Below are positions 25,482 through 64,000 of a stretch of DNA of 64,000 nucleotides, in pieces. The notes under the pieces are model-generated. The model was not told where the DNA came from and searched no databases. It saw only the letters and a program-made list of their open reading frames with translations. Position 1 is the stretch's first letter. The number at the start of each line of letters is the position of its first letter. The position numbers were made by a program, and so were the translations under genes. This DNA comes from an uncultured Haloferula sp. (GTDB lineage Bacteria > Verrucomicrobiota > Verrucomicrobiia > Verrucomicrobiales > Akkermansiaceae), in the NCBI GenBank assembly GCA_965652295.1, contig CBFGTS010000001.1, forward strand, positions 416,001 through 480,000, given 5' to 3'.

Positions 25482-25573
25482 GGAGAGATGGCTGAGCTTG
25501 GTTTAAGGCACACGACTCGAAATCGTGCGTAGGGTTAAACCTACCGTGGGTTCGAATCCCACTCTCTCCGCCA
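25482..25573 (+). tRNA. tRNA-Ser (anticodon CGA)
   Basis: GGAGAGA/TCTCTCC acceptor stem, CACGA-CT-CGA-AA-TCGTG anticodon arm, long variable arm, GGTTCGAATCC T-loop, encoded CCA. Confidence 0.96.
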
Positions 25574-25706
25574 CCGCCCCTGCCCGGCTTGCCCGGGCAG
25601 GGGCGGTGGCGTTTTGAGGTGGGTGGAGAACGCTGCCGAGCGCAGCGAACGAAACAGGTTTGGGGTGAGGAGCGCAGCGACGAGGACAATCCCACTCCCT
25701 CCGCGA
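25574..25706 (+). repeat. tRNA-linked structured repeat ending in a degenerate copy of the tRNA 3' end
   Basis: Long hairpin, then a 38-nt core shared with the second tRNA-Ser locus (33/38 identical), then AATCCCACTCCCTCCGCGA resembling the tRNA end AATCCCACTCTCTCCGCCA. Confidence 0.75.
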
Positions 25707-58556: not shown

Positions 58557-58644
58557 GGAGGGGTGGCAGAGTGGTCGAATGCGCCGGTCTTGAAAACCGG
58601 AGACGGGAAACTGTCCGTGGGTTCGAATCCCACCCCCTCCGCCA
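58557..58644 (+). tRNA. tRNA-Ser (anticodon TGA)
   Basis: GGAGGGG/CCCCTCC acceptor stem, CCGGT-CT-TGA-AA-ACCGG anticodon arm, long variable arm, GGTTCGAATCC, CCA. Confidence 0.96.
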
Positions 58645-58870
58645 CGACCCGACTCCAGCTTGCTGGAGTCGGGTCGTGGCGTATGCGGAGGGAGGCAATC
58701 CCTCCCGGAGCGGAGCGCAGGAGGGTTTGAAAACAGGAAGCTGATGTTATCGGCGGCATTCCTCGGCGAGCATAGCGAGCGAAACCGGTTTGGTGTGAGG
58801 AGCGGCTTGTCCGCCGTAGCTCTAAGAGCGAAGGAGGAAGCGTCGCCCTGATTTCTCCCGCTCCGCCGAC
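58645..58870 (+). repeat. tRNA-linked structured repeat with nested REP-like palindrome
   Basis: Long hairpin, GGAGGGA-GGCAA-TCCCTCC hairpin, 38-nt core shared with 25637-25674, nested GCTTGTCCGCCGTAGCTCTAAGAGCGAAGGAGGAAGC, weak tRNA-end-like CTCCGCC near 58861. Confidence 0.7.
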
Positions 58871-59160
58871 GACCAGTGAAGCAGAAAGATAGGCCGACAA
58901 AACGCTGGCTTGTCCTGGCATGGCCGAAATCCCTAAGTTGCGACGGCTAACAGCCGCCGCCTTTTTCTTTCCCATGCACTGGACCGAACCCGCCTCCGCC
59001 GAAGACTCGCATTCCGAACTCGAGAAACAGCTCTGGGGCGCGGCGAACCAAATGTGGGCGAATGCCGACCTCAAGCCGTCCGAGTTCTCGCCCGTCGTCC
59101 TCGGCCTAATCTTTCTGCGCTATGCCGATGTCCGCTTCGCTGCCGTGGAGGCGGATATGG

Positions 59161-59185
59161 GTAGGGACGATCGGCCCGATCGTCC
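59161..59185 (+). repeat. GTAG-type REP palindrome inside hsdM
   Basis: GTAG followed by GGACGATCGG-C-CCGATCGTCC (perfect 10-bp inverted repeat). Confidence 0.8.
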
Positions 59186-59525
59186 GACTTCCCGCCGCAG
59201 ACGCACCATCGGCCCCGCGGACTACCACGCCGCGGGGGTGATCTATTTGCCGAAGAAAGCGCGGTTCGCCTACCTGCTGTCCCTGCCCGAGGGGCTGAAT
59301 GTGGGTCATGAGATCAACGAGGCCATGCGCGCCGTCGAGAAGGAGAACCCGGACCTCGCCGACGTCCTGCCGAAGACCTACCAGATCCTCGAGAACCGCA
59401 CGCTCGCCGAGCTGCTCAAGGTCATGGCCTCCATCCCCATGGACAAGGGCGGCGACACCTTCGGCCTCATCTACGAATACTTCCTCGGCAAGTTCGCCAT
59501 GTCCGAAGGGCAGAAGGGCGGCGAA

Positions 59526-59588
59526 TGGAGCGGAGCGACATGGACGACCATAGGGAGCCCGGAGGGTTGGCGCGGGGGCGCCAATCAA
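59526..59588 (+). mobile_element. 63-nt in-frame multi-hairpin insertion in GGE^FYTP
   Basis: Adds [21 protein letters not shown]; hairpins ATGG/CCAT, GCCC-GGA-GGGT, TTGGCGC/GCGCCAA; ends AATCAA. Confidence 0.8.
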
Positions 59589-59687
59589 TTCTACACGCCC
59601 ACCTCCATCGTCCGCCTCATCGTCGAGATCCTCGAGCCCTACCACGGGCGCATCTACGATCCCGCCTGCGGTTCCGGCGGCATGTTT

Positions 59688-59753
59688 GCCTCCTACCGTC
59701 GGCCATGCGGGATCCGCTTCGCGGGCAGGAGACGCGCAAGCGCGAGGGGCATT
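59688..59753 (+). mobile_element. 66-nt in-frame structured insertion in GSGGMF^VQS
   Basis: Adds [25 protein letters not shown] direct repeat at the junctions; internal hairpins CCGC-TTC-GCGG and CGC-GCAA-GCG. Confidence 0.75.
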
Positions 59754-59824
59754 GTCCAGTCCGCCCGCTTCGTGGAGAACCACCACAAGAACCCGATCTC
59801 GGAAATCTCCTGCCACGGCCAGGA

Positions 59825-59902
59825 CAAATGGGCGTGGGGTGCCCATTTGAGACGTGCGCAGCGCGCCCGCAGGGTGAGGCAGCGGCGGAAGCTGCCGAAT
59901 CA
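59825..59902 (+). mobile_element. 78-nt in-frame multi-hairpin insertion splitting the Glu codon of GQE
   Basis: GA[CAAATGGGC..GCCCATTTG ... GCCC-GCA-GGGT ... GGCAGC..GCTGCC-GAATCA]A; removal restores GAA and [11 protein letters not shown]. Confidence 0.8.
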
Positions 59903-60346
59903 ACGGGTCACCGAGACCAGCCGCCTCGCCCGGCTCAACCTCGCCGTCCACGGCCTCAGCGGCGACATCCGCCAGGGAAACACCTATTACGAGGACCTCC
60001 ACGACTCCGTCGGCCGCTTCGACTTCGTCCTCGCCAATCCGCCCTTCAACGTCAGCAAGATCGACAAGGAGCGCCTCGCCGACGACCCGCGCTACGCCTT
60101 CGGCCTGCCGCGCACCGACAATGGCAACTACCTCTGGATCCAGCACTTCCACGCCGCGCTGAATGCCACCGGCCGGGCCGGCTTCGTGATGGCGAACTCC
60201 GCCGCCGACGCCCGCGCCTCCGAGCAGGAGATCCGGGAAAAGCTGATCAAGAGCGGCCACGTCGACGTGATGATCTCCATCGGGCCAAAGGGAGATTCAA
60301 CTTGTCGTGTTCTCGCCGGTGCTATCCACATCGAAACCCTTAAATC

Positions 60347-63300
60347 ATGAAGATCAAAGTTCTTAATCCGGACGGAGTGCATGCCCGGGAGATTAAAGGC
60401 CTCGCAGCCCTCAAGGAAGCACTCCCCAACGAATGGTACGGGTATGCCTCTCTTGAGTTGGTCGGCGAGAACGGAGGGGAAATTGACCTCGTGATCTGCG
60501 CTGAGGATCGCCTGATTGCGGTCGAAATCAAAGATTGGAACGGAAAGATTGAAGACCTCGGTCCGTATTGGCGAACGAGCGGGCGAGAACAGAAGTCACC
60601 CGTAGTCACGATTGCGGAAAAGTCGAAGAAGCTGGCAAGTAAGCTTAAGACCTTCCTTGCGCCAGAGCATCAAGCTCCATGGGTGGACCACTGCGTGCTG
60701 CTCACCGGTAAATCGCGAAGAAATGACCTGAGCGAAGACAGCAAAGACAAGACATTTGAGCTCGAGTTTTTCAAACGGATAGGCAATAAGGAGGTCTTCC
60801 GGGAGTGCTTTACTCACGAAGCCTGGTGTCGCACGCCGATTCACGACCTTAAGCCGAAACTCGACGTGTTTTTCGCTGGACCTCGTGTTCGCCCGTTAAG
60901 TTGTTCATACAACGGGTATAAGGCAAATGATGATCCGTGCTACACTCACCCGAAGCGGATCTACTCGGAGTATTTCGCAGAAAAGGAAGGAGCCAAAGGT
61001 TTCAAAGCGCTCTTGCGCCGCTGGGACTTCCATGAGCTAGGCAACGTCGATGCAACCTACCTGAACAAAGAGAATCGGACGACTCTCGCCCTAAGGGAAG
61101 AGAATGCAATCGGCTATCTTAGAGACGCAAAGCCTGAACTCGTAGGCCGAAACGTGTTCCTTGCGCCAATCTCGAATGAAGGGCGAGAGTCGGTCACCGA
61201 AAATTTTTTCGAACTTTACGACCTGCCCCGGGACTTGAGCCGTCTGAAAGAATCTTTGCGCCGCTATGGAGACTCGCTCAAGGACGATAATCGCATTTCA
61301 ATCGCACGTCTTCTTCTCCATCACCTCTCTGAACTTCACGAGCTTGAGGTCGCCCACAGGGATATTGGCGAGCATTGCATCTGGATCAGCGTTCCCGACA
61401 AAGTTTCGCTTTCAGGCTTTGCGACCAGTTCGTTCCCCGAACAGAAAACAGTGGCTCAGATCCGAGAAACAATCCGTGGCGGAGGGGAGCGGATCCCCGA
61501 AGAGTTACTGGACCTGAAGTCCAACAATTTTCGGAAGGATGTCTTTCTCCTAGGCTCGGTCGTCCACCAAATCTTGTTCGGAACCAAGCCGAGACTTGTC
61601 GATGGGGTTCCGACGTGGCACCCGCCAACGAATGGCAAGTTCGATCAATTCTGGGGATGGTTTGATCGGGCCTTAGAGCTCGATCCTGCGAAGCGTTTCT
61701 CGAACGCAACCTCGGCATTCGACGAGTTCCAGCGGTGCAGCAAGACATCCGAGTGCTTGGAATTCGATGAGAAGGATTTCCGTGAATTTGAGAAGTCGAT
61801 TCCGCCAATGCCAAGACTACCAGGTGACACAGTCCTCAGGCAGGATTCGGGTGGCTTGGTCTTTCATTCCGAATGCGGAGGAGGAGATGCTTGTCTTAAC
61901 AAGGTTTGGCCAGATGCCAAGTTCAAGCCCGGCGCTGTGGCCGAGAACTTCCATTTGCTAAGTTTTCTGGAGCGGATCCAACGTCTACAGATGGCCGACC
62001 TAGAATGCCAACAGCGGGTCCTTGATTTCGGGATAACAAGCTTCGGTTCCTACGTCGTCCTGAAGTGGGAAGGCGGGCAATGTCTTGAGGAGTTTGAAGG
62101 GGAGAGTTTCGACGACGAGGCCGGGCTGGCTTTCGTCCGAGCTCTTGTGCAGGCGGTGGCGGATCTCCACCGATGCCAAATCTTCCATGGGGATCTCAAA
62201 CCCGGGAACATTCTCTATGCACTAGGCGAGGAAGGTGAGACGACGATCCGCCTCATCGATCTCGTGGATTTCGCACCGGCAGGAACGGAACGGCGGTCAT
62301 CCGCTTACCTTCCCCCGGAAGGTGAGGAGGCTACCACGCCTGGGTGCGACGGCTATGCGTTGAAAAAGATCGTCACCGATTTCGTCCTACCTCGCATGCC
62401 CGGAATGTCCAAAGCACTTGCGGAGCGGATCACCGCAATCTTGGGCGATATGGTGGACCCCGATGGGGGTATTCCGGATGTGAAAGGTGCTTTGGATGAG
62501 CTGGCAAACCCTTTTGATGCCGATGATGAATCCTCATCGGGATCCCGAGAAGAGCTTGTTATTTCTATGGGGGGGATTGAGAGAGAGATCCTCATGATGC
62601 CGGATGACCGGGGGCTTCCGGTTACGATTTCACGCGACCGAGACGATCCTGAAAGCTTCGTCGTCCGAGTCACTGATTCCGCTCATTGTCTGGGGCTGCT
62701 AGTCAACGCTCCGCGGAAGGCGATAACTAAGATATGGCAGCAGCCGGCGACGATCATGGATCTGGCCCAGAACCTCCGATGGAAGGCCTCCCTGCTTGAA
62801 AGGCCGCTACGTATTCTGCGGAGTCAGGCAGACGACCTCACGGCCTTAAATGAGCTTCTGGATGAGCTGGCCATCTTTTCCGAGCTGGATAAACTATATC
62901 GCAAGGAAGTACAGGCCACGCGGGAGGAAGAGACGCTAGCAAGTCAAGTCGGCCACGATTTCAATGAAGCCGGTTCAGATGAATCCGATCAGGCACCCAG
63001 CCAAACGCCTGAAACTCCGCTCGTCGATGTTCCCCTCGATCTCTTCTGGGAAGCTCTGCTTGATGCCGAGGCCAGGATCGTCCCAGTTATGGCTGTCACT
63101 GACGAACCTGTGGAAATCCGATCTTCAGGGATACTTGTTCTTCCGGTCGGAGAGCCATCAGCGCCATTCGACCCCCAAGATGATGAGCCAGTAGAAGTCC
63201 AGACACAGGATCCTGCAGGGGAGTGGCGCTACTTTGGTAATCTCGACAACCGGAGGAGCCAAAATGGGCGGCTTGCTGTGGTTCCCAAGGCCAGGGGCAC

Positions 63301-64000
63301 CTTCCGACCGCGAACGGGCACGGCACTCCGACTGGAGAACAAAGCATCACGTGCCTCGTATTTGAAGCGGCTTGCCGCAGTTCAGCGGATCGTAGGCCGG
63401 GATTCCGTGTGCCCCGAGCTTTTCGATTACTTCGGCGGGGACGGCTGCCTTGACTCTCTGCCCGGTCGCTTTGCAGGCAAGTTGGACGGGCTCGACGCAT
63501 ACGGCCTCAATCCGGTGCAAAGAGATGCGCTGGAGACAGCATTGAAATGTTCTCCCCTTGCTATGATCCAAGGCCCACCGGGTACTGGAAAGACCGGGGT
63601 TATTTCGGCTGCGGCGCACTACATCGCGACGAACTTCCCCACCGCCAAGATTCTCGTGGTCAGTCAGTCTCACGAAGCAATCGACCACGCTACTGAACAG
63701 ATCGTGAAGCGTTTTCGCAAGCAAGGCGATGAGCCTTCTCTGGTTCGTGTGGGACGGCGGGCTGCGATCAGTGACAATCTGATTTCGTTCCACTCAGAGT
63801 CCCTGCAGGGGGAGTATCGCGAACGGTTCCGGCTATCCCTTACCCAACGAATTCTACCGCTGGGCAGTCGGCTGGGATTGAGCGAGGCGTTCGCGGAAAG
63901 CCTCGCAGTGATAAGAGCGCGGTTGGTTCCGCTTCTACAGCAGCTTGGTCCAGAGCCGTCCGGAGAGGAGGCGGAAATTGATCCGGCCCTGCGACGGCAC
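60347..64000 (+). CDS. NERD nuclease - kinase-like - Ser/Thr kinase - SF1 (UPF1/DNA2-like) helicase fusion, >1218 aa, runs off window; candidate anti-phage protein (Mokosh MkoA-like)
   Basis: Manual translation of sampled segments, all in one frame: [15 protein letters not shown] (NERD), AHRDIGEH (about 61355), [17 protein letters not shown] (about 62186), [10 protein letters not shown] (63572-63595), [12 protein letters not shown]; absent from the ORF track, consistent with no stop inside the window. Confidence 0.88.

Follow-up and report, generated by a model that had tools for sequence, protein, structure and literature searches.

The 64,000-nt stretch of DNA analyzed here, referred to as the window, carries on its forward strand a frame for the methyltransferase of a type I restriction-modification system (hsdM, 58920..60350; homologues begin at the Met codon at 58974), in which both the HsdM_N and the N6_Mtase domains find a match. 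Similarity to hsdM stops near 60285, leaving the gene truncated with its C-terminal third (~165 residues) absent, and on its 3′ side a NERD-kinase-helicase gene stands in place of hsdS; within 60285-64000, this following gene looks lower in GC. The nearest homologous loci are from Verrucomicrobia. Relative to 120 homologous proteins, the host frame holds three in-frame inserts, which sit within conserved methyltransferase motifs. Insert 1 (59524..59588, plus strand) has 65 bases, stands in for an AA pair (2 bp) belonging to the GGE/FYTP Glu codon for a net gain of 63 bp in frame, and reads in order terminal A, P1 (a 3-bp outer stem plus GAGC-GNA-GCGA), a GAC linker, P2, P3 (CCC-GNA-GGG), P4, AATCA and a second terminal A. 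That it is a real insertion, as the initial annotation had it, is borne out twice: the protein alignment places 21 extra residues here, and a contig from run X4, a study separate from both possible source runs of this genome, lacks exactly these 63 nt and shows 5 differences in 304 bases (~98% identity).

Insert 3 (59824..59903, plus strand; net +78 bp, in frame) is of the same type as insert 1, called type A below, with a different and longer first hairpin; locus L005 has it at the identical site, where the empty allele in X4 reads AG. Insert 2 (59686..59753; net +66 bp, in frame) is a probable type B element (ATGC ... GCATGG ... GGAGGCA) lying on the minus strand, antisense to hsdM, and the X4 empty allele reads GA there on that strand. 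In a contig from run X5, 501 nt spanning all three insert sites are missing, which we note only as a further eroded hsdM allele. The insert 1 peptide recurs at the identical site in 4 of 118 other HsdM homologues, with akin peptides at different sites in homologues P0015, P0016 and P0117. Other in-frame repeats were seen among homologues P0002-P0120, namely heptamer tracts and palindromes of the PSPxPSPxGRG type, a DUF559 domain being present in some of the latter, and hsdM seems to be a general sink for repeat insertions. In the N-terminal region of the gene in the window, a short, partly palindromic extra stretch (59150-59205) that varies among homologues may be another small insert of repeat type, the fourth in this gene. 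Folding inserts and flanks one sequence at a time gave z values from -2.7 to +1.0 and was uninformative save for insert 3.

Two serine tRNA genes on the plus strand of the window are followed by repeat units. Behind tRNA-Ser(CGA) (25482..25573), a tRNA-linked repeat unit (25574..25704, plus strand) consists of a hairpin, a T-arm mimic, a T-loop insert and a tRNA 3′-end duplicate (25689-25704); the A-bounded T-loop insert (25629-25689) is of subtype C, with two GAGCGNAGCGA modules and without P3. The unit behind tRNA-Ser(TGA) (58557..58644) is decayed (58645..58869, plus strand), with a hairpin, an inverted T-arm copy capped by a motif at 58707-58718, a subtype B/C T-loop insert from ~58730 and a degenerate tRNA 3′-end copy (58852-58869). 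Nested within this T-loop insert, at 58805-58840, is a GTCCGCCGTAG...GCGAAGGAGG repeat, and like nesting occurs in L341. PMC8144298 describes tRNA-linked repeats (TLRs) as known since 1978, of unknown function and carrying an 18-19 bp repeat; their layout, downstream of a tRNA gene and ending in its last 18-19 bases, is present at Ser(CGA) and degenerate at Ser(TGA). Six tRNA 3′-end duplicates were found at five tRNA loci of this genome (Ser(CGA) and four others), each running from the T-loop onward.

The initial annotation had joined these two settings through a short motif at the start of insert 1 that recurs behind both tRNA-Ser genes, and had proposed one element family at tRNA 3′ flanks and coding sites. 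Both genes are confirmed, and the motifs lie at or within one base of where it placed them: GGAGCGGAGCGAC at 59527-59539 (its start shifted inward by a single base), GGAGCGCAGCGAC at 25669-25681 behind Ser(CGA), and GGAGCGGAGCGC at 58707-58718 behind Ser(TGA). Genome-wide counts were near chance under an order-5 Markov model (GAGCGNAGCGA, 33 observed vs 20.9 expected; GCCCGNAGGGT, 28 vs 22.2; the 13-mer, 3 vs 1.6), and bare motif counts were rejected as proof of a family for that reason; behind tRNA genes, however, GAGCGNAGCGA occurred within 400 nt downstream of 4 out of 41 (0.06 expected; Poisson p 4e-7), compared to 0.14% of 20,000 random windows, and still of 3 out of 40 (p 3e-5) when the locus that prompted the idea was removed. 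The 41 genes are 47 ARAGORN calls minus the tmRNA and five calls judged spurious. In insert 1 the motif forms the 5′ hairpin; at Ser(CGA) it lies where the T-loop insert ends on its 3′ side, and at Ser(TGA) it is not part of the T-loop insert at all. The hairpin that it caps in these flanks is thus not the one that it caps in insert 1, and it also tops GTAG-type REPs. Local alignments of insert 1 with the Ser(CGA) and Ser(TGA) flanks were non-significant (p 0.05 and 0.12), and pairwise comparison of the three inserts with eight tRNA-flank inserts gave a best p of 0.017 in 24 tests, non-significant once corrected. Judged from sequence, the 13-mer is a hairpin-cap module common to the elements, with no collinear homology between insert 1 and the Ser flanks.

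Insert 1 is nonetheless almost certainly a free-standing copy of the four-hairpin core found at the T-loop position of TLR/RtT units, and a member of the same family. A three-part pattern drawn from insert 1 matched at least 119 metagenome stretches, among them T-loop duplicates and hsdM; 16 of the stretches listed have a tRNA gene in the fetched flank, and of 20 loci picked by hand, 10 exceed the gathering score of Rfam RtT. The type A core also falls within a feature annotated RtT on an E. coli chromosome. We used two covariance-type comparisons of different make-up, whose E-values are inflated and for which GC-rich background scores up to 13-17 bits. Model R1, built from 43 rows chosen by eye (none from this genome, four hsdM-borne, two flank bases per side), gave insert 1 65.6 bits, insert 3 25.3 bits, and the Ser flanks 9.6 and 5.7 bits, at background level. 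Model R2, trained on nothing but 14 tRNA-flank cores (T-loop inserts taken from repeats of the E. coli RtT type), ranked insert 1 first in the window (33.7 bits) and insert 3 second (24.3 bits), with the next match at 15.6 bits; it scored the Ser(TGA) flank at 11.3 bits and returned nothing at the other. Inserts 1 and 3 have hairpins collinear with the RtT core, which the Ser flanks do not, and it is this collinear four-hairpin architecture together with the same ends that links insert 1 to RtT cores. The proposal of one family at tRNA 3′ flanks and coding sites stands at the level of the family: type A is the RtT/TLR core in other genomes, and type B, which forms the core behind the tRNAs of this genome, likewise has free-standing copies in relatives. 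The more specific tie of insert 1 to the window's own tRNA-Ser flanks through the 13-mer reduces to a shared module. Insert 1 was not recovered by a sequence-only HMM from the tRNA set, in which one of 15 training rows was misoriented, and was missed by a genome-wide R2 search in which 150 of 5278 candidates were scored. Another type A-like copy (L213), near a contig end at C18:90-150 of this genome (G000), reached 30.9 bits with R2.

Paired positions agree with the proposed fold. The outer P1 pair was complementary in 40 of 44 copies, compared to 15.2 under permutation, and in 70 of 72 copies in relatives; stem covariation was 0.282, versus 0.093 in shuffled and at most 0.108 in slid alignments. 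The P3 loop is GNA in 62 of 68 copies, and GNA triloops and tandem GA pairs favor DNA hairpins.

E. coli TLRs and Rfam RtT (RF00391) share core architecture and ends with type A, and their layout with a duplicated tRNA 3′ end is seen also in the window's tRNA flanks. Those flanks do not match RF00391, unlike RtT proper: neither insert 1 nor the Ser(TGA) flank had a match up to E 10, a genome-wide scan with 150 of its 461 candidates scored gave none up to E 1, and both insert 1 and the flanks of the window fall short of the gathering threshold (45 bits for the 130-position full model). Rfam RtT membership of the window's tRNA flanks was rejected on this lack of a match, and the free-standing copies are homologous to the RtT core without being full RtT. 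In the parts of the sources available to us, TLR and RtT are described as tRNA- or rRNA-linked or as small RNAs, whereas here the core is free-standing in coding DNA and other repeats; the current version of PMC10542128 has no passage on RtT. No description of free-standing TLR cores was found in the full-text literature searched, though older work may mention them.

The tRNA flanks of this genome and insert 2 look like a sister subtype to type A. Model R3, for type B, was made from seven tRNA-flank cores of five other genomes; its eight best matches in this genome are eight tRNA-flank sites, including the Ser(TGA) flank, its best match in the window (19.0 bits). It did not recover insert 1, and scored insert 2 at 13.7 bits against a background of 12.9. 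Insert 2 has both ends in common with this subtype, and a post-hoc type B pattern, many of whose matches in relatives are chance, hit insert 2 and three tRNA-flank units in this genome compared to none for the reversed control. From these sequence features, insert 2 likely belongs to type B. Among 25 type B copies inspected in relatives, 18 lie in a T-loop context and the others in heptamer tracts and other repeats; a pattern search brought up two more, one situated in an intron loop and the other in frame in an IS91-like gene, both recognized by reading. Subtype C, the Ser type, had all six of its matches across 61 genomes in tRNA-type repeats and none outside. Type B copies are clustered on one contig of genome G321 (L414-L417, C16), and in G308 they stand in tandem with an 80-bp period within heptamer tracts (L418-L420).

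Type A copies are widespread and mostly remote from tRNA genes. R1 matches (rough E 1e-6) were found in 45 of 61 related genomes, 293 in all, and we examined 73 copies from these, namely 78 listed rows minus three duplicates and the two weakest; only two of 60 R1 loci scanned have a tRNA nearby. Twelve of the 73 lie in hsdM and one in hsdR. Others are found in transposase genes (RAYT, IS3, IS630, IS66 and IS91), in domain V loops of group II introns, in heptamer tracts or repeats of other kinds, in a kinase gene and in uvrA (L240); the intron loops, the repeat classes and several of the RAYT genes were recognized by reading. Elements also nest in one another (L278, L450). Five matches came from viral contigs, every one in heptamer tracts, phylum-wide searches with exact patterns gave matches in 4 of 301 and 0 of 251 genomes, and BLAST against plasmids returned nothing useful. 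We regard it as almost certain that the type A core is mobile, because it is found at numerous unrelated sites, its ends there are sharp and invariant, and empty alleles exist. In the one E. coli chromosome searched, 11 of 12 R2 matches were TLR-type and free copies are not evident; in E. coli a REP-like unit also breaks into the second RtT copy (L209:700-750), and a weak R2 match (L445, 26.1 bits) has no tRNA link. In G354 (C49:45700-50900; L261, L281), several remnants that look like domain V of group II introns each carry a type A element and lie ~1.1-1.4 kb apart, resembling a cassette array, and an in-frame type A copy (L309:1501-1567) lies near the end of an apparent thiC gene (by reading), a housekeeping host.

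The bias toward hsdM is also seen with the tRNA-only model: 3 of 30 R2 loci are in hsdM, compared to ~0.02 expected on a rough genome share of 0.064%. All 15 hsdM copies have a length divisible by three, compared to 4 of the 13 copies in transposase-type genes and, at the remaining sites, 27 of 63, which points to persistence of only frame-preserving hsdM copies and thus, as far as sequence can tell, to selection on the translated protein. Three hsdM relics (L247, L248, L249) contain one element that joins two distant target sites.

The ends of the element are well defined. Among the 73 copies, the left end is A in 72, the right end is A in 67, and the preceding base is G or C in 72; for ends with unconstrained flanks, the counts are 37/44, 34/43 and 42/44. 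The closest empty sites (n=37) read AA in 19 cases and otherwise AG (7), TG (7), GA (2), AT (1) or TT (1), so 18 are not AA, although the AG and GA cases are possibly synonymous drift and every case of TG, TC or TT replacement is of type B and belongs to a single genome, G321, with two registers. The AG at site 3 and the GA at site 2 in X4 are the majority alleles among homologues, and in heptamer tracts free of A in one genome TG is replaced by the element. Base 59 of the tRNA is other than A in 8 of 18 cases, and the duplicate still begins with A in seven of these eight; one tRNA case (L394) kept its T. Very probably, then, the element bears an A at each end and replaces two target bases without duplication, nearly always after G or C. 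Since both terminal A's belong to the element and 2 bp are replaced, the best boundaries of insert 1 are 59524-59588. For this junction, the initial annotation had offered two readings. Duplication of an AAT target was rejected, as the bases that open the core differ from site to site and pair inside P1, which makes the AAT a chance microhomology. A simple insertion at GA^A accounts for the net length but misassigns both A's, and it was rejected on the X4 alleles, the tRNA duplicates and the empty-site dinucleotides. The element was also compared with a MITE of a DDE insertion sequence, a picture it does not fit: its ends are asymmetric, and target bases are replaced rather than duplicated.

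Several known systems resemble this element in part, and in its way of working it is akin to the REP, SDR and Rickettsia palindromic mini-elements. REPs have in-frame copies in DNA repair and RAYT genes, according to PMC3733652 and 10.1101/279083. Like the REP/REPIN-RAYT system, the elements described here are small hairpin repeats with in-frame genic copies and have the cap and P3 modules in common with it, but they consist of four hairpins in single oriented units rather than inverted dimers, replace 2 bp of target, and have no flanked transposase that we could find. The GTAG-like foot or GTAG-CGTC tag of REPs is absent from alignments A1, A2 and A4. The cyanobacterial SDR elements of Elhai et al. 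(2008) are reportedly tiny and structured and lie inside genes, heptamer tracts and their own copies. These and the Rickettsia palindromic elements are described with another length and sequence, and neither is known to have a tie to TLR cores. What they share with type A is being tiny structured elements within genes (for Rickettsia, PMC3733652). IS200/IS605 elements and their derivatives have in common with it the lack of target duplication, oriented insertion and hairpin ends. The right end of IS608 reads TCAA, as does that of type A. IS200/IS605 elements insert 3′ of a fixed tetra- or pentanucleotide and lose no target bases, whereas here target choice is far looser, with a constraint on just a single preceding base (G/C), the target loses two bases, and no autonomous partner was found.

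Our best explanation as a whole, held tentatively and with a little less than even confidence, is that a mobile TLR/RtT core is moved in trans with replacement of 2 bp. The element would be non-autonomous, mobilized by an enzyme that recognizes folded single-stranded DNA. A TLR unit would arise if an event at T-loop bases 58-59 went together with a doubling of the tRNA 3′ end, and an entry at these bases would explain the 18-19 nt repeat length of TLRs; events away from T-loops would survive chiefly in dispensable or repeated DNA, and recombination between two hsdM copies could then delete the middle of the gene. This suggests that TLRs are footprints of a tiny mobile element that exchanges itself for two target bases. 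If the core is such a module entering at bases 58-59, the origin of TLRs becomes testable with defined ends and targets, and because a footprint of 2 bp replaced and nothing duplicated is unusual, it should reveal what class of enzyme is at work. From their concentration in hsdM, the elements may offer restriction systems a way to gain peptide loops or to decay.

As mobilizer, a Y1/RAYT-type HUH transposase would be the candidate narrowly ahead, an assignment we make only provisionally, since its probability too is somewhat under one half. One RAYT is described as cleaving at CA (PMC8266576). The genome has twelve Y1 matches, two of them with P3-bearing arms around them; arms with a P3 module lie beside 2 of 10 checked GIY-YIG/Y1 matches, and whole elements beside none. 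No autonomous copy or flanked enzyme gene turned up in a search with element halves in five element-rich genomes (16 regions, 61 of 164 ORFs). HUH strand transfer, as in IS608, costs no target bases, and a RAYT/HUH enzyme therefore leaves the 2-bp replacement unexplained. A wider claim would trace TLRs across bacteria, E. coli RtT among them, to one superfamily of A-bounded hairpin elements 55-85 nt long, which a small nuclease moves in trans through an undescribed reaction that replaces two bases, with type I hsdM genes as a hot spot. It strikes us as rather doubtful; were it true, the hsdM elements would add peptides and seed deletions that wear down anti-phage defence.

Other routes to the same pattern were weighed against movement of the core in trans. 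The same element might instead be moved by a stand-alone GIY-YIG or similar nuclease, through a double-strand cut with 2-nt 3′ overhangs whose bases are lost as the A-bounded element is patched in. The 2-bp replacement fits the 3′ overhang of 2 nt that PMC2761285 describes as a hallmark of GIY-YIG enzymes, and an 88-aa gene of this kind lies in this genome between the 3′ end of tRNA-Met and a decayed copy thereof; that gene, however, has no flanking type A or B module, and ligation of a non-homologous patch has no explanation. T4 SegB likewise cuts both ways (PMC2330249), for it recognizes a tRNA T-arm motif but cleaves after CCAR, outside the T-loop. On balance movement by such a nuclease is unlikely. 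Host repair or template switching might equally have captured the hairpin at breaks with no dedicated enzyme, and recombination of repeats and hsdM alleles spread it, as the concentration of copies in repeats and mobile or defence DNA, the identical insert at one hsdM site in 4 of 118 other homologues, and the deletions joining two target sites (L247, L248, L249) would allow; constant ends, the G or C preceding 72 of 73 copies, and constant 2-bp replacement over unrelated targets suggest a specific reaction, and make capture by repair improbable.

We give a similarly low probability to an RNA route, in which TLR transcripts cut from tRNA precursors are reverse-transcribed in trans into nicked DNA and a little of the target is lost. 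Transcription and processing are described for the TLRs of E. coli (PMC8144298), copies sit in T-loops as well as in the domain V loops of group II introns, and the 15 hsdM and 13 transposase-type copies are all in the sense orientation of the host, for which stop codons give no reason (open per frame, antisense 86/22/75 of 88 versus 56/55/55 in sense). Insert 2 is antisense, though, and a displaced non-template DNA strand accounts for the orientation equally well; both ends are sharp, poly(A) tails and 5′ truncations are absent, and the GNA triloops and tandem GA pairs speak for DNA. That the hsdM inserts are spliced out or bypassed in RNA so that an intact protein is made would suit their position within conserved methyltransferase motifs, but the frame preservation of all 15 hsdM copies, versus 4 of 13 in transposase-type genes, indicates that they are translated through, the host gene is truncated regardless, and the joined forms come from runs taken as DNA; we find this scarcely credible. 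Just as remote is a convergence of unrelated hairpin repeats on one stable cap motif. A motif near chance genome-wide that also caps GTAG-type REPs, and an insert 1 that does not align with the Ser flanks, are what coincidence predicts, and for the 13-mer link within the window it is the correct reading. For type A it is contradicted by the scores of the tRNA-only model R2 (33.7 and 24.3 bits), and the collinear four-hairpin architecture and same ends tie insert 1 to RtT cores.

Sequences of GIY-YIG type were seen next to tRNA-Met. The stand-alone 88-aa gene makes up an ORF-bearing tRNA-linked unit at the end of contig C3 of G000 (tRNA-Met 314109-314183) and C9:1-330, where the decayed tRNA-Met copy beside it holds a hairpin, and a GIY-YIG-like fragment, recognized by reading, follows tRNA-Met at C2:260051.
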